Assembly (NCBI GenBank): GCA_017480545.1
Contig: JAFVAI010000012.1
Coordinates: 5,452-69,451, forward strand
Length of the DNA: 64,000 nucleotides
DNA from: Schwartzia sp. (in: firmicutes)
GTDB taxonomy: Bacteria; Bacillota; Negativicutes; Selenomonadales; Selenomonadaceae
Direction: 5' to 3'
The notes beneath the pieces were generated by a model, which ran no database searches, had not been told where the DNA came from, and saw nothing but the letters and a program-made list of their open reading frames with translations. The position numbers were made by a program, and so were the translations under genes. Shown one piece after another: positions 35,118 through 45,184 of this stretch; position 1 is the first letter of the stretch; each line of letters begins with the position of its first letter.

Positions 35118-35492
35118 ATGCCCCAAACGGAGAATACCGCGACGCCGGGCCTGCCGATCAATCCGTCCGTAAAGCAGTAGGCGGAGCAAATATTGCCGAA
35201 TCTCGGCATTCCTTTGGCGACCGCGATTGACATTTATCTCCGGCAAATTGCAATCGCCGGAGGCATTCCGTTTTCTATTCGCGTGGCTCCCGTACCGGAT
35301 ACGATAAACGCCGATAGGATGAGCGCAGACGAAATCAACCAGTCGCTTGAAGCCGGGGATCGGGACGCCATATCCGCCACACAAGGGATGCGGAAATCAT
35401 GGCGGCGCAGGGATAAATTCTTTTATAACGCAAGGGGCGCGGCGGTTTTGCCATGCCCCATTCCTTGCTTTTTATGCTTTCCTGCTTTATGA
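35118..35492 (+). pseudogene. RelB/DinJ-family antitoxin remnant interrupted by an in-frame TAG (35178-35180). No partner toxin gene.
   Basis: INPSVKQ-stop-AEQILPNLGIPLATAIDIYLRQIAIAGGIPFSI matches the DinJ/RelB ribbon-helix-helix core. The reading frame then runs through a hairpin and the next cassette promoter, so the native 3-prime end is lost. Confidence 0.5.
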
Positions 35493-35493
35493 T
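35465..35493 (+). promoter_or_regulatory. Promoter of AbrB-PIN cassette 1 (TTGCTT-17-TATGAT) with flanking inverted repeat
   Basis: Hexamers read directly. The same arrangement is conserved at 40352-40380. CTTG...CAAG inverted repeats bracket the -10 (candidate operator). Confidence 0.55.
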
Positions 35494-35526
35494 ATACATA
35501 CAAGAATGAAGAGGGGGGTGTTCTCC

Positions 35527-35862
35527 ATGTTGGCGGAAATCATGGGCAGCGGGCAAATCGCTTTGCCGCCTGCCCTTATGAATCAACTGGAATGGAAAAT
35601 CGGGGACAAATTAAACATGATTGTGGAAAATGGCGAACTGCGCTTGCGCGGCGCCGAAAAGCCCGCGAAAAAAGAGTTTTTTTATATCGACAATGAAAAC
35701 GAGACGAATCCCGCCCTTCTGGCTTTGGAAGAATTAGCGCAAGCCTGCAAGGGTGCAGCCGAAGAGGCAGGTTTCAAAAACGAGGAAGAGGCACACCGAT
35801 ATATAAAAGAAGTGATTCGTCCGCAAGTGTGGGAGAAATACAATGCTGCGCGTAATGCTTGA
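35527..35862 (+). CDS. AbrB/MazE/SpoVT-type antitoxin
   Basis: GQIALPPALMNQLEWKIGDKLNMIVENGELRL swapped-hairpin motif. Overlaps the downstream PIN gene by 20 nt. Confidence 0.75.
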   Translation: MLAEIMGSGQIALPPALMNQLEWKIGDKLNMIVENGELRLRGAEKPAKKEFFYIDNENETNPALLALEELAQACKGAAEEAGFKNEEEAHRYIKEVIRPQVWEKYNAARNA

Positions 35863-36250
35863 CACCAACATATTGGTGTCAATGGCATTTTATCCCGCTC
35901 CAACAGTGAGCCGATTCTTTGGCGTACTCCATGCCGATCATAAAGCCGTGCTTTGTGAATATGTCATAGACGAGTTTCGGCGGATTGCACAACAAAAATT
36001 TCATGTTCACGATTCTGTCATTGAAACATTTCTGCACAAATTCCCCTATGAATTTGTGGCAACTTCTCAACCGGATGGATCTCTTGCCCTTCCGAAAATC
36101 CTCGATGAAAATGACGCACCGATTCTCGCCACAGCCATTCTGGAAGATGTGGACATCCTCGTAACAGGCGACAAGGATTTCTTGGTGCTTGACCTTCCAA
36201 AGCCGAAAATTATGACCATGGCAGAATTTATTGAAGCGTTTGCATCTTAA
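35843..36250 (+). CDS. PIN-domain toxin
   Basis: MLDTNILVS, DENDAPILATAI, LVTGDKDF acidic residues of the PIN fold. Confidence 0.85.
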   Translation: MLRVMLDTNILVSMAFYPAPTVSRFFGVLHADHKAVLCEYVIDEFRRIAQQKFHVHDSVIETFLHKFPYEFVATSQPDGSLALPKILDENDAPILATAILEDVDILVTGDKDFLVLDLPKPKIMTMAEFIEAFAS

Positions 36251-36288
36251 TAATGATTAGCAAAAGAAAGGGGCATGGCGGTTTCTCC

Positions 36289-36317
36289 TTGACTTTCATA
36301 CGATGGTATGATAGCAT
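36289..36317 (+). promoter_or_regulatory. Candidate sigma-70-type promoter TTGACT-17-(TG-n-)TAGCAT
   Basis: Read directly. Lies immediately downstream of the truncated hairpin after PIN gene 1 and upstream of the tandem repeats. Confidence 0.45.
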
Positions 36318-36536: not shown

Positions 36537-37150
36537 ATGTCCATCACCAAAAAAGAAGCGCTTACAATCTTGTCGCGATGCGCGAAGATTTATGACGAAC
36601 AGCTTCGGAACAAAAACCTGTTGTTCTTGCTTATGGACAAGCAGCAGACAGTACACAGTCTTGAAACCATTTTCCTGTCCAGGAATTTCAAACACCTCAC
36701 CGGATTAGCCAGTCCGTTAGGCGCAAATAGATTCTTTGAGAAAATCCTTGCGCGTCAGCTTGGGCTGAATGAGTTTGACTTCAAAGACGATGGAACAACT
36801 GAATTGAAGCTGAAGATTCTGCCCACCTTGATGAGCAAAAATCTTTCCGCGAACATGGCCGGAAATTTCGCAGGGAAAACCGCAAAACTATATATACCGA
36901 GAAAATTGCCGGAAGATTAAACGGGAGTATGGGATTTGTTTTTGATGAAAATGCAAAGCGGTACGTTCCCAATACGGTACTGCATGAGGATATGAGGGAT
37001 ATGGTTTCCGTATTGTACCGTGTTGTTGCGACTTATCGCAAAAATATTAAGGATATTCAATATTCTGAGGTTGTTTATGCCGCAAAGCAAGTAGACTTCG
37101 ATTCTCTTGTTTTTCCGGCTGAAATTGCATATTTGCAAAGGTTGATATAA
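36537..37150 (+). pseudogene. Hypothetical nuclease-like gene split by a frameshift (127-aa ORF 36537-36920 plus 73-aa ORF 36929-37150)
   Basis: The second frame is open back to about 36860 (…YTEKIAGRLNGSMGFVFDENAKRYVPNTVL), so the two ORFs read as one about 200-aa protein. The FKHLTGL motif resembles phage Barnase/EndoU/RelE-like (PBECR-type) families, from memory only. Confidence 0.45.
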
Positions 37151-37156
37151 TTCCAA

Positions 37157-37196
37157 AGAAAAGGGGCATGGCGGCTTTGCCATGCCCCTTTTCTTT
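37157..37196. terminator. Bidirectional terminator AAAGGGGCATGGCGGCTTTGCCATGCCCCTTTT
   Basis: Perfect GC-rich stem flanked by A- and T-runs between convergent genes. Confidence 0.85.
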
Positions 37197-37207: not shown

Positions 37208-37414
37208 TTAGATTTTGCAAACATACTCCTTACAGCTTGCCGCGGCGGGCTTTTTCACGCCGTATTTCTTGCACACGTTCATCGCCTTGTCGTCGTACTC
37301 CCAAAAGCCGCCGACGGTGTTCTTCGGCCGGATTGCTGCGCCTGCGGGATCGAACCAATGTTGGCAGAACGCGCAGAAGCGCGCGGTTGTTTTGACGTTG
37401 ACGGTTCGCATCAT
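37208..37414 (-). CDS. Small Cys-rich hypothetical protein (68 aa)
   Basis: CAFCQHW...C...C..YVC pattern. Last gene of the AAA+ operon. Starts 20 nt after the upstream gene's stop. Confidence 0.55.
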   Translation of the reverse strand: MMRTVNVKTTARFCAFCQHWFDPAGAAIRPKNTVGGFWEYDDKAMNVCKKYGVKKPAAASCKEYVCKI

Positions 37415-37434
37415 GATGATCTACCTCGTTGCGT

Positions 37435-38604
37435 TCAACTGAAAATGGACGAGAACAGGTTTTTGACGCCGTTCACAATGCTGCGGCCTACGGACTTGAC
37501 GCCTTCCCATGCGCGCTTCAGGACTGGCTTCGCGACTTCCGCGATTTTGTGGACGGCTTTTCCGATGGCTTTTCCGATGGTGGAACCGCCGATTCGTCCG
37601 ACGACGCCGCCGACGAAATTGCCTACCGCCATTCCAACCGGCATCAAAACGGGCATCACAGAGCCGACCATCATGCCGAGCGCTTGGCCTGCCTTTTTCC
37701 CTAACTGCTCGCCAAGATGTCCGCATACATTGGAAGCCTGCACCGTAGCGACACGCCCCATGAGATTCAAGGCTTGACCGCCGCTAATGTCGCCATCCGC
37801 GAACTGCATCACGATTTTTGCCTGTTCCACACCCGCACAGGCAAGGCCGGATACAATCGCAGCAGGGGTGCTTTTCGGCAGGAAGGGAATATATCCTTTC
37901 TCTATGCCGGCTTTGAGCGCTGCGGACGCCGCTTCCTTTACCCCCTGATCCTCGCCGCTTCTGAGAGCGTCCCCGACCTTCTTCAAATTTTGGACGTTTT
38001 CCCCCAAGGGGATGTTTTCCGCCATCTTCCAACCCGTGCGCAGGACTGTACTGGCAAGGCTTGATACCTCGACCTCTTTGCCGAGCTGCAAGGCGAGTTC
38101 ATGGGTGTTTGCCGCGTCCCATTCCTGCTCGCCATTTTCCTCAAAATCGGAAGGCTGCTCCCGTGTGCCTTCAATCGCTTCTTGGTTGGCTTGATGCAGC
38201 TCCGTATTTGCTTCAGCGAGATATGTTCCGTAATCCGATACATTGACGCCGATCGTAGATTCTTGCAGCTTTCCTTCCAGCCATTCCTCTTTCGATTTTC
38301 CCTCGGCGCAAGCCTCATGGATAGAAGCCATGTCCGCGTCCCATGCGGCGACGCTCGTGTGAATCTCTTTTCGTATGGCCTGGATTTCTTCCTCTGACCG
38401 TTCCGGCAGTTCGTCTTTCAGCGGAGCGTCCAGCCAGGCAGATTCATCGTCCTGCTCTGATTCTTCATAGGCTTTCATGAATCGCCCCATAATCGGGGCC
38501 AGCCGCTCGGCTGTTTTTTCATCAAACCCTTTGACGGAATCGGCAGTACCCTCGGAAATATCTTTGTATTCCTCTTCCGGTGCGGTATGTCGGTCGTTTG
38601 TCAT
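37435..38604 (-). CDS. Hypothetical protein with an acidic N-terminal region and a C-terminal glycine-zipper / amphipathic segment
   Basis: GMMVGSVMPVLMPVGMAVGNFVGGVVGRIGGSTIGKAIGKAV near the C-terminus. GAGGTGAG RBS. Confidence 0.65.
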   Translation of the reverse strand: MTNDRHTAPEEEYKDISEGTADSVKGFDEKTAERLAPIMGRFMKAYEESEQDDESAWLDAPLKDELPERSEEEIQAIRKEIHTSVAAWDADMASIHEACAEGKSKEEWLEGKLQESTIGVNVSDYGTYLAEANTELHQANQEAIEGTREQPSDFEENGEQEWDAANTHELALQLGKEVEVSSLASTVLRTGWKMAENIPLGENVQNLKKVGDALRSGEDQGVKEAASAALKAGIEKGYIPFLPKSTPAAIVSGLACAGVEQAKIVMQFADGDISGGQALNLMGRVATVQASNVCGHLGEQLGKKAGQALGMMVGSVMPVLMPVGMAVGNFVGGVVGRIGGSTIGKAIGKAVHKIAEVAKPVLKRAWEGVKSVGRSIVNGVKNLFSSIFS

Positions 38605-38616
38605 TTCGTTCTCACC

Positions 38617-38784
38617 TCACGCTTTCGACGCCTTGATTTTTCCCTGCCCATATTCCACCATGTACCGCTTTTTGCAGTGCGAGCAAGTTCCTCTCGTGCG
38701 GCTGATGCTCGATGTGTCCACATTATACGGGCCGAGCTTCTTTTGCTTGCAATGGGGGCAAGATACATATTTTGACAATGCCAT
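38617..38784 (-). CDS. 55-aa zinc-ribbon protein (absent from the ORF track)
   Basis: Hand translation: MALSKYVSCPHCKQKKLGPYNVDTSSISRTRGTCSHCKKRYMVEYGQGKIKASKA. GGAGGG RBS. Sits 16 nt after the AAA+ stop and 12 nt before the next start. Confidence 0.6.
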   Translation of the reverse strand: MALSKYVSCPHCKQKKLGPYNVDTSSISRTRGTCSHCKKRYMVEYGQGKIKASKA

Positions 38785-38800
38785 AGCCGTTTCCCTCCGA

Positions 38801-40327
38801 TCAGCTTATAGAGGCGTTCTTGAAATGACGCTCCTGATAGACCTTGGCCATCTTCTCGATGGACTCCTTCATGATCTCCGACAGCGACGCCGTGCTGCGG
38901 ATCGCCGAGAGCAAAAGCTCCGTCGTCAATTTGGGCTTGTCTTGTGTGAACGCCGCTTCGATGGCGTCCTTTACCACGCCTTCAATATCCGAGCCGCTGT
39001 ATCCGTTTGTTTCCTTCACCAGCGCCGAGAGGTCGATGCCCGCGAGGTCTTTCTTTCTGCGCTTGCCGATATGAATGGAGAAAATCTTTTCCCTTTCTTG
39101 GGGATTCGGCAATCCGACATAGAAAATCTCGTCAAAACGCCCTTTCCGCAGAAGCTCCGGCGGCAAATGCTCGATGTTGTTCGCCGTAGCCACCACAAAG
39201 GCCAGTCCTTCCTTCTCCTGCATCCATGTCAGGAACGTGCCGAAAAGCCGTGTCGTCACCTCATGGCCGCCGCCTCCGCTGCTGATCCCCGCGAAGGCTT
39301 TTTCCAACTCGTCAATCCAGAGCACGCAAGGAGAAATAGCCTCCGCCAAAGCAATCGCCTGTCGAAGATTCGCTTCCGATTCGCCGACGTATTTTCCCAT
39401 CAGCCGTCCCATGTCGAGCCGGAGCAGAGGCACTTCAAAGAGCGCGGCGGCGGCTTTCGCGTTCAGCGATTTCCCGCAGCCGGGCAGTCCCGCAATCAAT
39501 ACGCCCTTCGGCAAGTCCACGCCGAAGGCTTCGGCCTTGTCGATGTTCTTCAAAACCTTTGCCTTTTGCTTCAGCCATGCTTTGAGATTTTCCAGACCGC
39601 CGATGTCCTCGATGCGCTCTTTCAGCGGCACCATTTCCATGATGCCCGATTTCTGCACAAGCTGTTTCTTTTGCTCGTGGCTCAGCGCGAGGTCGGCGCG
39701 CCCGATTTCCCCGTTGTCCGCCAACGCCAGCGAAAGGATATTGATAATCTCGAATTCCGGCAAGCCTTTGAAGGCAAGGGCCAGTTCCCGCAGAAAATCT
39801 TCATGCAGCGCGTCCAAGCCTTGCTCTTCGCAGAAGCGGACGATAATTTTTCGGATTTCCTCTGCCGAGAGGTAATCAACCGTCAGAATCGTGATGTAAT
39901 GCTCCAACTCCTTCGGGATGCACGTCCTCGGAGCGATAATCACGATATTCGCGTCCGTGAGCTGTCCCGACACGATGCGCTCGGACAGATATTTGAGCTG
40001 TGCCACCACGTCCGGCGCCTCCAAGAACTGCTGCGCGTCCTTCAAGACCAGCACCCGACGCCGAAGATCATAACGCGCCGCAAACTTTTCGCTGCCTGTC
40101 TGGTTCGGGTTGGCGAAATTTCCCAATGCTTCGGGGAGCGTAACGCCGTCCACTTTTTCCTTCGATTGTTTGAAGAGCAATCCGCGCACGTTCCACTCGA
40201 CGACCTCGCGGTTTCCCGCCGCTTCCTCGATGGCGCGGTCGGCCTTGTCCTCCTCAAAGGTTGCGATGTAGAGAATCGGGAAGCCTGCATCCATATAGAG
40301 CGTCATGCGCTCCGATAGTGGTTTCAT
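38801..40327 (-). CDS. Classical-clade AAA+ ATPase with an unassigned N-terminal domain of about 240 aa
   Basis: Walker A GLPGCGKS, Walker B VLWIDELE, ATANN, PPELLRKGRFD. The ATG at 40327 follows AGGAGG (the track ORF extends to 40540 without support). Confidence 0.9.
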   Translation of the reverse strand: MKPLSERMTLYMDAGFPILYIATFEEDKADRAIEEAAGNREVVEWNVRGLLFKQSKEKVDGVTLPEALGNFANPNQTGSEKFAARYDLRRRVLVLKDAQQFLEAPDVVAQLKYLSERIVSGQLTDANIVIIAPRTCIPKELEHYITILTVDYLSAEEIRKIIVRFCEEQGLDALHEDFLRELALAFKGLPEFEIINILSLALADNGEIGRADLALSHEQKKQLVQKSGIMEMVPLKERIEDIGGLENLKAWLKQKAKVLKNIDKAEAFGVDLPKGVLIAGLPGCGKSLNAKAAAALFEVPLLRLDMGRLMGKYVGESEANLRQAIALAEAISPCVLWIDELEKAFAGISSGGGGHEVTTRLFGTFLTWMQEKEGLAFVVATANNIEHLPPELLRKGRFDEIFYVGLPNPQEREKIFSIHIGKRRKKDLAGIDLSALVKETNGYSGSDIEGVVKDAIEAAFTQDKPKLTTELLLSAIRSTASLSEIMKESIEKMAKVYQERHFKNASIS

Positions 40328-40351
40328 AAAGCTATACCTCCTTTTTGATGA

Positions 40352-40380
40352 TTGCTTTTTCGGCGTTCTTGCTTTATGAT
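40352..40380 (+). promoter_or_regulatory. Promoter of AbrB-PIN cassette 2 (TTGCTT-17-TATGAT)
   Basis: Conserved with 35465-35493. Lies in the 85-bp divergent region shared with the AAA+ operon. Confidence 0.55.
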
Positions 40381-40412
40381 ATACATACAAGAACGAAACG
40401 GGGGTGTTCTCC

Positions 40413-40724
40413 ATGTTTGCGGAAGTCATGGACAATGGACAGATTGCTTTGCCGCTCTCCCTTATGAACCAACTGGAATGGAAATCCGGGGATAAACTGG
40501 ATATGGTCTTGGAAAATGGGGAACTGCGCTTGCGTGGCATCGAAAAGCCTAAGGAAAAGGAATTTTTTTACATGAAAGACGAGAACGAAACAGATTCTGT
40601 TCTTCTGGCATTTGAGAACTTGGCGCAAGCATGCAAAGGGGCTGCCGAAGAAGCGGGATTCAAGAATGAAGAAGAACTGCAAGCATATTTAAGTTCATTT
40701 CGCAGGAAGGTACGGGAGGGCTGA
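40413..40724 (+). CDS. AbrB/MazE/SpoVT-type antitoxin, paralogue
   Basis: GQIALPLSLMNQLEWKSGDKLDMVLENGELRL. Start chosen by alignment to the 35527 paralogue. Confidence 0.75.
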   Translation: MFAEVMDNGQIALPLSLMNQLEWKSGDKLDMVLENGELRLRGIEKPKEKEFFYMKDENETDSVLLAFENLAQACKGAAEEAGFKNEEELQAYLSSFRRKVREG

Positions 40725-40726
40725 CA

Positions 40727-41134
40727 TTGCGCGTTCTGCTTGATACCAACATTCTAATCTCGGCGGCTATATTCCCTTCGCCGGTCACCAAAGATTTTTT
40801 GTGGCAGCTTCGTGCCTTGAATGCAAAAATCTTTCTGTGCAACCATATCGTAAAAGAGTTTGTGGACGTGTACCAGGAGAAATTTCCCCATAAACAGGTT
40901 GCCGCGCAACGTTTTCTAAAAGAATTACCCTATCACATGATTCCTGCCTCAGAGCTACAGACCAATGATTCGGTTTCTTCAATCCGCGACGTCAATGACG
41001 CGCCTATCCTCACTGCGGCAATAAAAGGAAACGTGGACATCCTTGTAACGGGAGATAAAGATTTCTTGGTGCTTGACCTTCCGAAGCCGAAAATTATGAC
41101 CATGGCAGAATTTATTGCTACATACGATTCTTGA
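40727..41134 (+). CDS. PIN-domain toxin, paralogue
   Basis: LLDTNILIS, VNDAPILTAAI, LVTGDKDF. TTG start after GGGAGGG. The 3-prime end is nearly identical to the 35843-36250 gene. Confidence 0.85.
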   Translation: MRVLLDTNILISAAIFPSPVTKDFLWQLRALNAKIFLCNHIVKEFVDVYQEKFPHKQVAAQRFLKELPYHMIPASELQTNDSVSSIRDVNDAPILTAAIKGNVDILVTGDKDFLVLDLPKPKIMTMAEFIATYDS

Positions 41135-41148
41135 AGCTGATTTCATCC

Positions 41149-41186
41149 AAAGCGGCGGCACGGCACTTTTGCCGTGCCGCCGTTTT
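41149..41186. terminator. Bidirectional terminator AAAGCGGCGGCACGGCACTTTTGCCGTGCCGCCGTTTT
   Basis: GC-rich stem between convergent genes. Confidence 0.8.
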
Positions 41187-41196
41187 AGAGTACTTT

Positions 41197-42391: not shown

Positions 42392-42721
42392 TTATCCTTC
42401 ATACCCTTTCGGATATTTGACATACAGACCGTACCGCTCCTGCGGGATTTTGGCGTTCATAATGTACGCGCGGGTTTCCGCAAGGCTTCTTTGCAGCCGC
42501 AAAAGCTCCTCTTTGGATTGCCGCACCTTTTGGGCTTTCTTCGGATCGTCCAGCCATTTCAGCGCCGTTTCCACAGGGTCGATGAGCTTGTAGAGGTCTT
42601 CAATCAAGTAAACCTTGTCGTCGGTTGAGGTGATGGCCTCCGCTTCGGCCCGGATGATGTCGATGTCCTTCTGCGATATGGTTTTGCAGGGTTCTTCGTC
42701 CCCGAAAATGCTCCAGCTCAT
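42392..42721 (-). CDS. Hypothetical protein (109 aa)
   Basis: The ATG at 42721 follows AAGGGGGA. The ORF ends 28 nt before the downstream zinc-ribbon gene starts. Confidence 0.55.
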   Translation of the reverse strand: MSWSIFGDEEPCKTISQKDIDIIRAEAEAITSTDDKVYLIEDLYKLIDPVETALKWLDDPKKAQKVRQSKEELLRLQRSLAETRAYIMNAKIPQERYGLYVKYPKGYEG

Positions 42722-42822
42722 CGTGTTTCCCCCTTTCATCATCGAGTATACAAAATGGGTTCGTCAGATTCTGACGAAGTGAAAATAAAATTGAAAAAAC
42801 GCCGAAAATTTTTTCTCAGCGT

Positions 42823-43602: not shown

Positions 43603-43926
43603 TTAAAAGCGACGATTCACGACCCAGCTATGCGGGCCGCCGTTTGTTTTGCGTGGGCAACGTCCCGGTTCCGGTCGTCCGCGGCTTTGTGAAAGCATCT
43701 TTTTCTGTCCGCAAAAGCGGCACATATACTCAATCATCTTTGAAGGCGCAGACTTCACGCCGCTTGTTGCCGCTTTCCAGCGGCGATTTACAGACCAACT
43801 GTGCGGGCCTCCGCTCTTTCGCGGATTTCGCGGGCAATGCCCCGGCTCCGGTCGTCCGCGGCTTTGGAAGGACATCTGCTTTTTCCCGCAGAAACGGCAC
43901 ATATATTCAATGCTGTCCGAGGCCAT
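43603..43926 (-). CDS. Internally duplicated zinc-ribbon miniprotein (two modules of about 50 aa)
   Basis: Two copies of IEYMCRFCGxKxMxxQSRGRPEPGxCPRxxxxGGPHSWxVNRR. The start is uncertain (ATG at 43926 or GTG at 43935). Confidence 0.55.
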   Translation of the reverse strand: MASDSIEYMCRFCGKKQMSFQSRGRPEPGHCPRNPRKSGGPHSWSVNRRWKAATSGVKSAPSKMIEYMCRFCGQKKMLSQSRGRPEPGRCPRKTNGGPHSWVVNRRF

Positions 43927-43954
43927 AAGAATCACCAGCGTTTCTTTATGAGTA

Positions 43955-44235: not shown

Positions 44236-44499
44236 CTATCTACCTGTCAATATCCTTCTTGAACGACTATCCAAAGGTGAACCGTCCATGGGATTAAGGC
44301 CACGTTCAATGAGTACATCTTCCATGATTAAACTTCTGACGCTCCCTAACATTTCCTTGCCGTGTAATCTAACCAGCTTTGCCGAAGACAGTTCTTCATA
44401 TTGTTCTTTAATGTCAAATACATCTTCTCTTGACAATTTTTTCCCATCGTCATCATAGTCTGGAAACATATACGGATCTGAAACCCATCGTCTGCTCAT
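44236..44499 (-). CDS. Hypothetical protein (87 aa), gene 5 of the AT-rich operon
   Basis: AAGGA RBS. Starts 15 nt after the upstream stop. Confidence 0.55.
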   Translation of the reverse strand: MSRRWVSDPYMFPDYDDDGKKLSREDVFDIKEQYEELSSAKLVRLHGKEMLGSVRSLIMEDVLIERGLNPMDGSPLDSRSRRILTGR

Positions 44500-44514
44500 A
44501 ATAACACATCCTTT

Positions 44515-44808
44515 TCATTTATTATTTTTTAGGTTCTCCTTAAAAGAATTAATTTTATCCAACATCATTTTTGAATCAGTCAAATATTCTTTTTTCATCC
44601 CTTCTTTTATCGATTCTTCTCTCTCATCAACCACCTCGTGAAATTTTTTTAAATTATCGCTTATTTCCTGTCGCTTAATCTTTTCTTCAATAAACACCTT
44701 TGACAAATATTCCTGGTCACGTTTTATCTGAGCGTTAAGTTCATCTTGCTCATTCTGTTTTTGCCCGTCAGCTGCAACAGTAGAATCTTTTCTTTTGGCA
44801 TCATTCAT
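44515..44808 (-). CDS. Hypothetical coiled-coil protein (97 aa), gene 4
   Basis: The ATG at 44808 lies 1 nt after the stop of gene 3, with GAGGT upstream. K/E-rich heptad-like sequence. Confidence 0.55.
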   Translation of the reverse strand: MNDAKRKDSTVAADGQKQNEQDELNAQIKRDQEYLSKVFIEEKIKRQEISDNLKKFHEVVDEREESIKEGMKKEYLTDSKMMLDKINSFKENLKNNK

Positions 44809-44809
44809 A

Positions 44810-45184
44810 TCAATACCTCGATGTTTTTCCGGCGTCATTAACTTTCTCTGCTAATTCTACGCCCTTCCCAGAATATAACTTATGTGCTTCCATATACAAC
44901 GATAATACATGCTTGAATAAGTCTTTATCGGATTTTATGCTTTGATCCTTCATCAACTCATTCAAGGTGTTAAGCGCGTTCATTGCAAGTTCGTGGTTAT
45001 CTGATAAGATAACATTCAATGCGTCATAGTTTTTTTCGATAACGGTCAATGCTGCATCTAAACGAGCAGCAATTTCTGCCCGTTTCGTTTTTTCTTGTTC
45101 GCGACACGCCAGATATTGAGCGCCAGCACTGACGGCTTCCTTGACAACCGGTGCCACTGCTGTAACTACCGCTACTGGTACCAT
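44810..45184 (-). CDS. Hypothetical helical protein with a hydrophobic N-terminus (124 aa), gene 3
   Basis: MVPVAVVTAVAPVV N-terminus. TAATG stop/start overlap with gene 2. Confidence 0.55.
   Translation of the reverse strand: MVPVAVVTAVAPVVKEAVSAGAQYLACREQEKTKRAEIAARLDAALTVIEKNYDALNVILSDNHELAMNALNTLNELMKDQSIKSDKDLFKHVLSLYMEAHKLYSGKGVELAEKVNDAGKTSRY

Follow-up and report, generated by a model that had tools for sequence, protein, structure and literature searches.

What do four tightly spaced minus-strand genes of a Schwartzia sp. contig encode, and do they make up a complete system? The genes lie in a window of 64,000 nucleotides, the whole stretch of DNA analysed here (contig JAFVAI010000012.1, positions 5,452 to 69,451), and encode an AAA+ ATPase, a 55-amino-acid (aa) zinc ribbon (Zn55), a glycine-zipper protein (GZ) and a 68-aa Cys-rich protein (Cys68). 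The original prediction took them for an operon of their own and a candidate defence or abortive-infection system. Comparison of related loci indicates that they form not a self-contained operon but the 3′ half of a conserved locus that is longer. The order of this locus is a tandem zinc protein (w110Zn), a WYL-type regulator, a 116-aa protein, a KIKF-domain protein, AAA+, Zn55, GZ and Cys68. The four-gene unit does not stand, because the upstream genes are conserved too and are hidden by an inserted AbrB-PIN cassette. A boundary drawn from a single genome was misleading, with a toxin-antitoxin insertion concealing the upstream half. That the locus is a conserved conflict system with GZ as its membrane effector seems to us an evenly balanced proposition.

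The nearest relative, locus L028, has an ATPase 97% identical to that of the window and carries its genes as one array on a single strand: w110Zn, WYL204, the 116-aa protein, a 66-aa open reading frame (ORF), KIKF601, KIKF343, AAA+, Zn55, GZ and Cys68. There, the AAA+ gene follows a KIKF gene and no toxin-antitoxin cassette is present. Homology between the window and L028 breaks exactly at the start of the AbrB-PIN cassette, which consists of an antitoxin gene at 40404-40724 and a PIN toxin gene at 40727-41134 (Pfam MazE_antitoxin and PIN_3). Because the cassette is absent from L028 and the homology ends at its edge, it appears to be an insertion that splits the system. Comparison with L028 thus indicates that it divides the window locus into two transcription units and is no part of the system. 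AbrB-PIN cassettes were rejected as members since the nearest relative is without them. The cassette had also been seen as a divergent promoter partner of the four genes across 85 bp. That distance is correct if AbrB starts at the ATG at 40413, and is 76 nt if it starts at the GTG at 40404, but the partnership itself does not hold, as the cassette is an interruption missing from L028.

A second AbrB/MazE-PIN cassette, at 35465-36258, is a direct repeat of 40352-41142, with 76-87% DNA identity and 4,886 bp between the copies. Both share a promoter-like stretch, TTGCTT-N17-TATGAT, and together they enclose a PBECR4 gene and the four-gene block, in agreement with the earlier description of a block bracketed by paralogous cassettes. 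In Selenomonas ruminantium (locus L001), the AAA+/Zn/GZ block also lies between direct repeats, there of a different cassette made of a 67-aa and a 68-aa gene. The two arrangements hint that the block may move or be rearranged via recombination between repeated cassettes. A family of similar G+C-rich hairpins (D3/D4), with the core GGGGCATGGCGG...CCGCCATGCCCC, is found at 35432-35466, 36261-36291, 37161-37195 and 41153-41187, where they mark off the small cassettes of the island: the AbrB-PIN copies, PBECR4, the AAA+ operon and the KIKF gene. These border hairpins look like bidirectional terminators and could be landmarks of recombination or insertion.

Within the four-gene block, the description from the single genome is accurate. 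The ORFs are co-directional, separated by 16, 12 and 20 nt, and each is preceded by a GGAGG-like ribosome-binding site. They share one terminator, a hairpin directly 3′ of the Cys68 gene, whose 18-bp stem is made of a 10-bp G+C-rich core and an extension of A-U pairs (ΔG −33.7 kcal/mol, z −7.1; none of 200 shuffles equally stable). Because an A-tract and a U-tract flank this hairpin, it could act in both directions. The ATPase starts at an ATG at 40327 with an AAGGAGG ribosome-binding site upstream. Its frame stays open upstream to 40540, and a start giving 579 aa was considered and rejected: homologues measure 495-508 aa, the ribosome-binding site belongs to the shorter form and DNA homology to L028 stops at 40345, next to the chosen start, all of which favour 508 aa.

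Selection was gauged by pN/pS (nonsynonymous to synonymous change), as crude estimates between the window and L028, a relative locus 86% identical: 0.04 for AAA+, 0.04 for Zn55, 0.17 for GZ and 0.11 for the 116-aa protein. The value for Zn55 argues that it is a real gene, and a second, independent gene caller for metagenomes also predicts Zn55 and Cys68. The zinc-ribbon gene of 55 aa that the original ORF track lacked is therefore genuine, and the Cys-rich gene at the end of the block, 37208-37414(−), is present as described.

Gene linkage across genomes separates core from accessory components. Starting from ATPase homologues, seven loci were reached, and in all of them the AAA+ and GZ genes are no more than about 1.6 kb apart, with GZ downstream. 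Independently, a 16-sequence GZ alignment used as the seed of a genome scan returned 13 loci, and each of the 10 with enough flank to be informative has an AAA+ gene within about 1.6 kb. The adjacent ATPase in these GZ-seeded loci is 45-62% identical to that of the window, including its N-terminal module, D1. Over all linked loci, identity to the window ranges from 45 to 97% for the ATPase and from 26 to 86% for GZ. The linked pair is present in Selenomonas, Phascolarctobacterium, Catonella, Bacillus, Clostridium, Lachnospiraceae and Oligosphaeraceae (a metagenome-assembled genome of Lentisphaerota), and spans Negativicutes, Clostridia, Bacilli and Lentisphaerota. By tblastn, a KIKF gene lies within 1-3 kb of AAA+/GZ in every surveyed stand-alone locus except that of S. 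ruminantium. Zn55 and Cys68 are found only in relatives from Selenomonadales, and this restriction led us to reject them as core components. This linkage shows AAA+ and GZ as the evolutionary core, with KIKF as the third component and the small zinc proteins as lineage-specific additions. The expected co-localisation of ATPase and 389-aa protein homologues is thus seen in every informative locus. For the four genes together it is seen in part, as AAA+/GZ is broadly conserved and Zn55 and Cys68 are restricted to Selenomonadales.

Table 1. Features of the locus in window coordinates, with the type of evidence for each.
Feature	Position	Strand	Evidence
w110Zn, 110-aa tandem Cys-rich protein	43603..43935	minus	ORF; 97% identity in L028
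Putative transcription regulator, 204 aa	42823..43437	minus	homology to wHTH-WYL (winged helix-turn-helix, WYL) regulators
116-aa accessory protein, lineage-specific	42392..42742	minus	ORF; homologues in L028 and L030
KIKF-domain protein, 388 aa	41197..42363	minus	N-domain homology across loci
G+C-rich hairpin between KIKF gene and PIN gene	41153..41187	strand-neutral	repeat search
Inserted AbrB/MazE antitoxin and PIN toxin cassette with promoter region	40352..41142	plus	Pfam, repeat, absence in L028
Tandem AAA+ ATPase, 508 aa (predicted)	38801..40327	minus	ORF and ATG preceded by ribosome-binding site
Zn55, 55-aa CxxC...CxxC zinc-ribbon protein	38617..38784	minus	ORF, purifying selection
GZ, 389-aa glycine-zipper protein	37435..38604	minus	ORF
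Cys68, 68-aa Cys-rich protein (CAFCxxWxDP...GGFWEYDD...C...C)	37208..37414	minus	ORF
Intrinsic terminator hairpin common to all four genes	37161..37195	strand-neutral	RNA fold

The ATPase has all features of classical-clade unfoldases (the Cdc48/FtsH/PAN group), including the second region of homology and AAA_lid_3. Pfam places AAA (E 9e-29) and AAA_lid_3 (E 1e-9) at residues 276-470 and nothing upstream. The motifs from which a 508-aa classical-clade ATPase had been predicted (GLPGCGKS, VLWIDELE, ATANN and RKGRFD) are upheld by 39 homologues, in which Walker A GLPGCGKS, Walker B WIDELE, sensor-1 ATAN, the RKGRFD arginine fingers and the pore loop KYVG are invariant. With this motif set intact, pore loop included, the protein is therefore probably a substrate-threading unfoldase. 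A profile of the 39 homologues has its best match in the Protein Data Bank (PDB) to the D2 module of p97/Cdc48 (E 6e-70), and the protein ends about 40 aa past the lid domain.

The N-terminal domain of about 240 aa had been described as unassigned. An AlphaFold2 (AF2) model of residues 1-245, with a pLDDT (predicted local distance difference test) of 84, matches AAA+ folds (RFC, spastin and FtsH) in Foldseek with probability 1.0, E ~1e-6 and TM (template modelling) score ~0.5. This domain has no P-loop, and FPILYIATFEEDKA stands in place of Walker A. With an AAA+ fold and no P-loop, it is assigned to a degenerate AAA+ module, D1. On this model, the ATPase is a tandem AAA+ protein, with a predicted inactive D1 (about residues 1-225) and an active, Cdc48/p97-D2-like D2 (about residues 235-500). 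The full-length protein matches phrog_8638, a family of unassigned function, with E 8e-120. Solitary relatives that are 32-36% identical are encoded by Corndog-like mycobacteriophages and Agrobacterium phage JP1. Those of JP1 (L007, 3521-5371) and of Mycobacterium phage Firecracker, gp100 (L008), have longer N-termini and belong to phrog_8638. Such relatives occur in lytic and temperate phages, with neither a GZ nor a KIKF gene nearby. A counter-defence decoy role for them is a possibility.

GZ is divided by charge and sequence character, as predicted. Residues 1-300 have a pI of 4.5 and residues 301-389 a pI of 11.3, and the C-terminus combines a glycine-zipper region (about 296-345) with an amphipathic Lys-rich helix. 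GxxxG runs occupy residues 298-310 and 324-344, with five consecutive in-register repeats. Gly306, Gly310, Pro318, Gly332, Gly336 and Gly340 are invariant across homologues, and the sole hydropathy peak is at 314-329. No signal sequence is evident, and the protein appears cytoplasmic. The AF2 model is confident and all-helical (pLDDT 78.5; predicted TM score 0.81). Foldseek searches with it against PDB and BFVD gave no significant match (best E 0.019, TM ≤0.25). Matches to ClyA-family folds (AhlB, MakA and XaxA) and to tape-measure folds were likewise not significant and were not used as evidence. Pfam (nothing at E≤0.1), NCBIfam and PADLOC make no assignment. PHROG profiles of tape-measure proteins match residues 289-389 weakly (E 3e-8 to 1e-3).

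An exhaustive HMMER search places GZ in a family that, at 50% identity, comprises 1,131 clusters, of which 333 match at E≤1e-30. Cluster look-ups returned no name other than "hypothetical protein". Two size classes are apparent, a short form of ~370-395 aa, to which the window protein belongs, and a long form of ~490-530 aa. The long form has an insert of ~130 aa with a conserved E...NSxD...YQxK and makes up most of the family; its alignment profile has no match among PDB sequences. From these sequence features, GZ is proposed to be a membrane effector. On a Clostridium butyricum megaplasmid (L040, 7983-9530), the GZ homologue is annotated as two ORFs of 100 and 403 aa, which suggests that the gene may be frameshifted or pseudogenised in that strain.

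The KIKF protein of the window has a conserved N-domain of ~190 aa (MARKIKFALEMKDG...) followed by a zinc ribbon and a variable C-terminal domain. The N-domain is 38-50% identical elsewhere (L024_285, 50%; L004_288/443, 47%; L022_293, 40%). It is constant across the family, and the C-termini vary between PTS-HPr, Sel1/TPR and rubredoxin-like or zinc-ribbon domains. The tblastn survey often found two or three paralogues per locus. Pfam sees only the zinc ribbon, and a profile search against PDB sequences gave no match. KIKF is proposed to be a sensor or adaptor of the system. In L030 (5535-15166), where the ATPase is 71% identical, there are three KIKF paralogues and a 461-aa GTPase (MMR_HSR1/DUF697) between GZ and Cys68; this extra gene suggests that the system can recruit further NTPases.

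A WYL-type regulator heads the locus in most relatives. By blastp, the 204-aa regulator of the window is 30% identical to a 330-aa WYL/WCX protein in L022 (E 2e-24) and has a homologue in L024 (E 1e-18). It aligns to residues 2-212 of the WYL/WCX proteins and is a short form without WCX, with a Pfam WYL match below threshold. In a tblastn search, L011, L012, L014, L016, L017, L022-L024, L026-L028, L030, L033 and L040 each had a homologue upstream of the system. The 116-aa protein (109 aa according to the other gene caller), encoded between the regulator and KIKF genes, is 94% identical in L028 and 41% in L030, and has no Pfam match.

The small zinc proteins differ in distribution. At the 5′ end of the array, w110Zn consists of two tandem Cys-rich modules of ~50 aa, EYMCRFCG...RGRPEPGxCPR...GGPHSWxVNRR, with sub-threshold zinc-ribbon matches in Pfam; its counterpart in L028, at the same end, is 97% identical. 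Single-module homologues, more widespread than Zn55 and Cys68, lie directly after GZ (L004), after Cys68 (L030) or just upstream of AAA+ (L036). At the aa level, Zn55 is 98% identical in L028 and 60-65% identical in S. ruminantium; it has sub-threshold zinc-ribbon Pfam matches and a match to phrog_16376 (E 6e-7). The gap of 18 nt between AAA+ and GZ in L004 does not contain it, and the other Bacillota loci are likewise without Zn55. Cys68, which is loosely associated with the system, directly follows GZ in L028 (65% identical) and L020 (50%) and is at another position in L030 (59%). In S. ruminantium, two Cys68 copies flank the module, each paired with a divergent 67-aa gene. Pfam, PADLOC, NCBIfam and PHROG give no family match for Cys68. 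Divergently upstream of the S. ruminantium ATPase (L001, 750-1581) are a gene of the RelA/SpoT-like small alarmone-synthetase type (205 aa) and a DUF6718 gene, a pair that might represent either a toxin-antitoxin system of the toxSAS type or an input module of an alternative kind.

Does the locus correspond to a system already described? A PADLOC-DB v2.0.0 scan covered the ATPase, Zn55, GZ, Cys68 and KIKF. It returned only generic IetA/TRIP13 AAA+ matches on the ATPase and nothing credible for the other four. IetA models were the best match (E 8e-25 to 6e-9), and the two systems resemble each other in a classical-clade AAA+ protein and a two-gene, defence-type module. However, the IetA match is limited to the generic AAA+ domain, residues ~250-498 of the window ATPase, and NCBIfam NF042959 (IteA_antiphage) scores 85.4 bits against a cut-off of 510 over residues 251-496. 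No IetS-like protease was found among the tested ORFs of 35-48.8 kb in Pfam, PADLOC and NCBIfam scans. The N-terminal pseudo-ATPase and the GZ partner belong to the window system and not to IetAS. Membership of IetAS was rejected, the score being far under the cut-off and a protease partner missing.

The closest precedent is the CoCoNuT family, the subject of the one relevant description that literature searches on AAA+/glycine-zipper/WYL defence systems returned (PMC11090510). Bell et al. 2024 (eLife; PMC11090510) reported, in extended Type III-A CoCoNuT operons, a tandem "SpoVK" AAA+ protein next to a glycine-zipper protein. Their SpoVK, described in silico, has an active C-terminal AAA+ module only (PMC11090510), and the module sits between VWA genes, within an operon of CnuB/CnuC (McrBC-like) type that also has a TerY-P triad (PMC11090510). 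Our link to CoCoNuTs was made by tblastn of plasmids with the long-form GZ, which found homologues on plasmids of Klebsiella and Enterobacter, many being conjugative. On Klebsiella quasipneumoniae plasmid NZ_CP082786.1, the operon encodes VWA, a GZ homologue, a 715-aa AAA+ protein with Biotin_lipoyl at residues 637-705, CARF, PP2C, a kinase and AAA_11. It is a putative CoCoNuT, so called here from a layout that matches the published description (PMC11090510). D2 and the tail of the window ATPase are 52% identical to the Klebsiella ATPase over 289 aa (E 2e-104), and the window GZ is 28-30% identical to the Klebsiella Gly_zip protein over its N- and C-terminal parts (E 2e-11 and 4e-17). These alignments indicate that the window pair is homologous to that module.

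The likeness extends to architecture, as both have a tandem AAA+ protein with only the C-terminal module active, adjoining a protein with a C-terminal glycine zipper, and the E...D...QxK insert of the long-form relatives of GZ fits an "inactivated PD-(D/E)xK" domain. The window GZ, in contrast, is a short form without the ~130-aa PD-(D/E)xK-like insert, and the window ATPase is without the C-terminal leucine-rich repeat and biotinyl-carrier-like barrel. The window D1 is not detectably similar in sequence, and the gene order is reversed. KIKF, the WYL regulator and the small zinc proteins occur in the stand-alone loci and are absent from the CoCoNuT-type context. Conversely, Pfam found no VWA, phosphatase, CARF, McrB/McrC-type GTPase or nuclease in the window island and its flanking ORFs. 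Between 35 and 48.8 kb, the only ORF long enough for a CnuB/McrB-type protein is the system's own ATPase, and the sole kinase gene (48879-50186) is outside the island. The earlier statement that the gene combination was unrecognised is thus right insofar as no PADLOC or NCBIfam system fits, but the core pair had been noted in CoCoNuTs (PMC11090510).

Three further comparisons bear on individual components. Cdc48/p97/VAT and PEX1/PEX6 share with the window ATPase two AAA+ folds, the KYVG loop, two arginine fingers and AAA_lid_3, with D2 closest to p97/Cdc48 D2. They differ in that the window D1 is without Walker A, there is no N-terminal double-psi barrel or cofactor-binding N-domain, the length is 508 aa rather than ~800 aa and the partners are unrelated. 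GZ resembles the LXG toxins TelE, EsxX and LXG-T2 of the T7SS, or type VII secretion system (here T7SSb), which also have a helical N-terminus followed by a C-terminal GxxxG ladder. In TelE and EsxX, the C-terminal glycine zippers cause membrane depolarisation (10.1101/2022.09.07.506920; PMC12744356), and the ladder is required for depolarisation and toxicity of LXG toxins (10.1101/2022.09.07.506920; PMC12744356; PMC12955049). This likeness supports the effector chemistry suggested for GZ. GZ differs in being without a Pfam LXG domain and in its pairing with an AAA+ unfoldase, and no T7SS (EssC/WXG-type) or immunity genes were seen among its scanned neighbours. The wHTH-WYL(-WCX) regulator at the head of most relatives recalls CapW of CBASS and BrxR of BREX; CapW-type repressors derepress immune operons upon sensing single-stranded DNA (PMC11662680). 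The window regulator departs from these in being short (204 aa) and in having no WCX, and the genes it regulates bear no relation to CBASS or BREX.

The genomic setting is that of an island. At ~35-48.8 kb, G+C content is 0.36-0.55 against ~0.60, between housekeeping genes. The earlier view of this island as rich in toxin-antitoxin genes is borne out by the two AbrB-PIN cassettes and by RelE-HTH (helix-turn-helix) and PIN genes at 46.5-48.8 kb. The locus is most likely carried on a horizontally acquired chromosomal island. A blastn search of the locus against phage genomes gave no match. A phage origin was rejected, as 2.9 million viral contigs held just 2-3 system loci, one or more of which lie between serine recombinase genes. 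In other genomes, relatives lie in mobile elements or beside known defence genes. The flanks of 14 sampled relative loci contain Mokosh MkoA/MkoC, retron RT-Toprim, PDC-S01/S02, serine recombinases, MobA relaxase and RadC. One locus has large serine recombinase genes on both sides, and another adjoins a restriction-modification system on the C. butyricum megaplasmid.

Conflict systems typically have WYL regulators and diversifying paralogues, and a constant N-domain with variable C-termini in multiple paralogues is a usual mark of sensor or specificity subunits that diversify. Judged by gene context, a role in defence is plausible, and the most likely form would be an anti-phage or anti-mobile-element system of the abortive-infection type. 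In such a system, repression by the WYL regulator would last until stress or infection is signalled. The variable KIKF C-termini might recognise the trigger, and the common N-domain would dock on the hexameric ATPase, possibly at its ring of pseudo-ATPase D1 modules. GZ would then be unfolded or remodelled by the D2 ring, with the acidic N-terminal bundle stripped from the basic glycine-zipper C-terminus. Once freed, this C-terminus could enter the cytoplasmic membrane, oligomerise and depolarise the cell. The opposite polarity, in which the ATPase constantly restrains GZ and infection releases it, would be equally compatible with the sequence data. We place the specific activation route, with the ATPase freeing the zipper, well short of an even chance. 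To our knowledge, unfoldase-gated pore formation is not a mechanism of any defence system. A broader proposal would make the system a new immune class, in which KIKF sensors direct a Cdc48-like unfoldase to turn auto-inhibited GZ into a membrane pore and the stand-alone Bacillota loci represent the cassette captured by CoCoNuTs; we hold this tentatively and consider it somewhat unlikely.

Several points weigh against a defence system with a membrane effector. GZ has a single hydrophobic stretch, itself marginal, no full transmembrane hairpin is predicted, and its fold matches no known pore-former in Foldseek searches of PDB and BFVD. The long-form protein was interpreted by Bell et al. not as a membrane effector but as a nucleic-acid binder of inactivated PD-(D/E)xK type (PMC11090510). 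The association with CoCoNuTs lends weak support for defence, because CoCoNuTs are themselves a computational prediction, and the ATPase family is not an intrinsic marker of defence, because homologues occur alone in phages. The defence-gene neighbourhood comes from the 14 sampled loci and has no background rate to set it against. The HPr, Sel1 and rubredoxin-like domains of KIKF C-termini point to no particular phage ligand, and KIKF may not be obligatory, as the S. ruminantium locus is without it in the available flank. In the window itself, no promoter was found for the AAA+ half after the toxin-antitoxin insertion, and this copy could be poorly expressed.

One alternative reading is an RNA- or translation-linked quality control, a role suggested by Bell et al. 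for the CoCoNuT version (PMC11090510). The ATPase would extract or unfold stalled or foreign ribonucleoproteins, with GZ as a nucleic-acid-binding cofactor that descends from an inactivated PD-(D/E)xK nuclease and not as a membrane effector. The insert of the long-form majority, with its E...NSxD...YQxK reminiscent of PD-(D/E)xK, speaks for it, as do the homologous pair in an operon of CoCoNuT layout, CoCoNuTs being predicted to target RNA (PMC11090510), and the position of Cdc48/p97 D2 as the closest solved relative of the ATPase. Yet the window GZ and all forms of ~370-395 aa are without the insert and keep both the zipper and the ATPase partner; the constant feature of GZ is therefore the zipper and not the nuclease-like domain. 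It is difficult to see why a soluble nucleic-acid binder should have an invariant GxxxG ladder and a hydrophobic core, and Pfam found no RNA-binding or ribosome-related domain in the stand-alone loci. On balance, we regard this role as unlikely. Constant N-terminal and variable C-terminal domains in several paralogues per locus are also the architecture of polymorphic effectors, and by analogy the locus might encode a protein export or delivery machine, with GZ as conduit, the AAA+ protein as motor and KIKF as cargo that combines a constant targeting domain with a variable payload. An unfoldase beside a putative membrane protein would suit a translocon, and proteins with C-terminal glycine zippers are known as T7SS-secreted toxins (10.1101/2022.09.07.506920). 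This is nevertheless distinctly unlikely, since the detectable KIKF C-termini are binding or small redox-type domains and no recognisable toxins, KIKF genes are not followed by an immunity-like gene pattern, GZ as a mostly soluble acidic bundle with one hydrophobic stretch would make a poor stable channel and the CoCoNuT-type context has the pair without KIKF.

The presence of loci in a toxin-antitoxin-rich island, on plasmids and in recombinase-bounded elements would also be expected of a mobile-element addiction or exclusion module, with a GZ toxin and an ATP-dependent ATPase antidote (or the reverse) that stabilise the island, or with GZ as a mimic of the membrane-inserting segment of tape-measure proteins that causes superinfection exclusion by blocking DNA entry. 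The PHROG matches of GZ residues 289-389 point the same way, and tape-measure proteins recur among the non-significant BFVD matches. That similarity, however, is limited to a low-complexity Gly/Ala/Val-rich stretch and is structurally not significant. Known addiction modules are far simpler than a regulated locus of 3-8 genes in which paralogues diversify, and the system is rare in viral contigs; the probability we give to this reading is low. Proteostasis is a common task of classical-clade AAA+ proteins whose pore loop is intact, so a housekeeping role without any part in conflict, as an Msp1/FtsH-like extraction ATPase with a membrane adaptor for membrane-protein quality control, was weighed as well. 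We judge it very improbable in view of the patchy distribution, the location in lower-G+C islands, plasmids and recombinase-bounded elements, the WYL regulators and diversifying paralogues, and the embedding of the pair in a predicted restriction-type operon; Pfam, PADLOC and NCBIfam found no protease domain or partner.

The system is not categorically new, because its core pair had already been noticed in silico in another context. The locus does unite three sizeable families without an assignment in Pfam, PDB or the literature, namely GZ, the KIKF domain and a Cdc48-like AAA+ protein in its form with a pseudo-ATPase D1, in one conserved genetic unit across several bacterial phyla, plasmids and integrative elements. 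If defence is its function, it would add a mechanistic class in which an AAA+ unfoldase controls a membrane effector through interchangeable sensors, and would open to experiment the ATPase/Gly_zip extension that CoCoNuT operons carry on plasmids of Klebsiella and Enterobacter. Should it have no defence role, a widespread unfoldase-substrate pair would still be described.

Two other parts of the island deserve mention. The PBECR4 gene between the cassettes (36537-36920, plus strand; a Barnase-EndoU-ColicinE5/D-RelE-like nuclease) matches positions 1-107 of a 188-position profile and is followed, in another frame, by a 73-aa ORF at 36929-37150 (plus strand), an arrangement that recurs in the metagenome contigs L037 and L038. 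The gene may be either a frameshifted toxin or a truncated nuclease with a small partner. On the minus strand, a run of five genes at 44236-46379 encodes proteins of 286, 109, 124, 107 and 87 aa, with a G+C content of 0.36-0.39 against ~0.60. It adjoins XRE-type regulators, its tested members match no family, and it looks like a second uncharacterised operon of the island.

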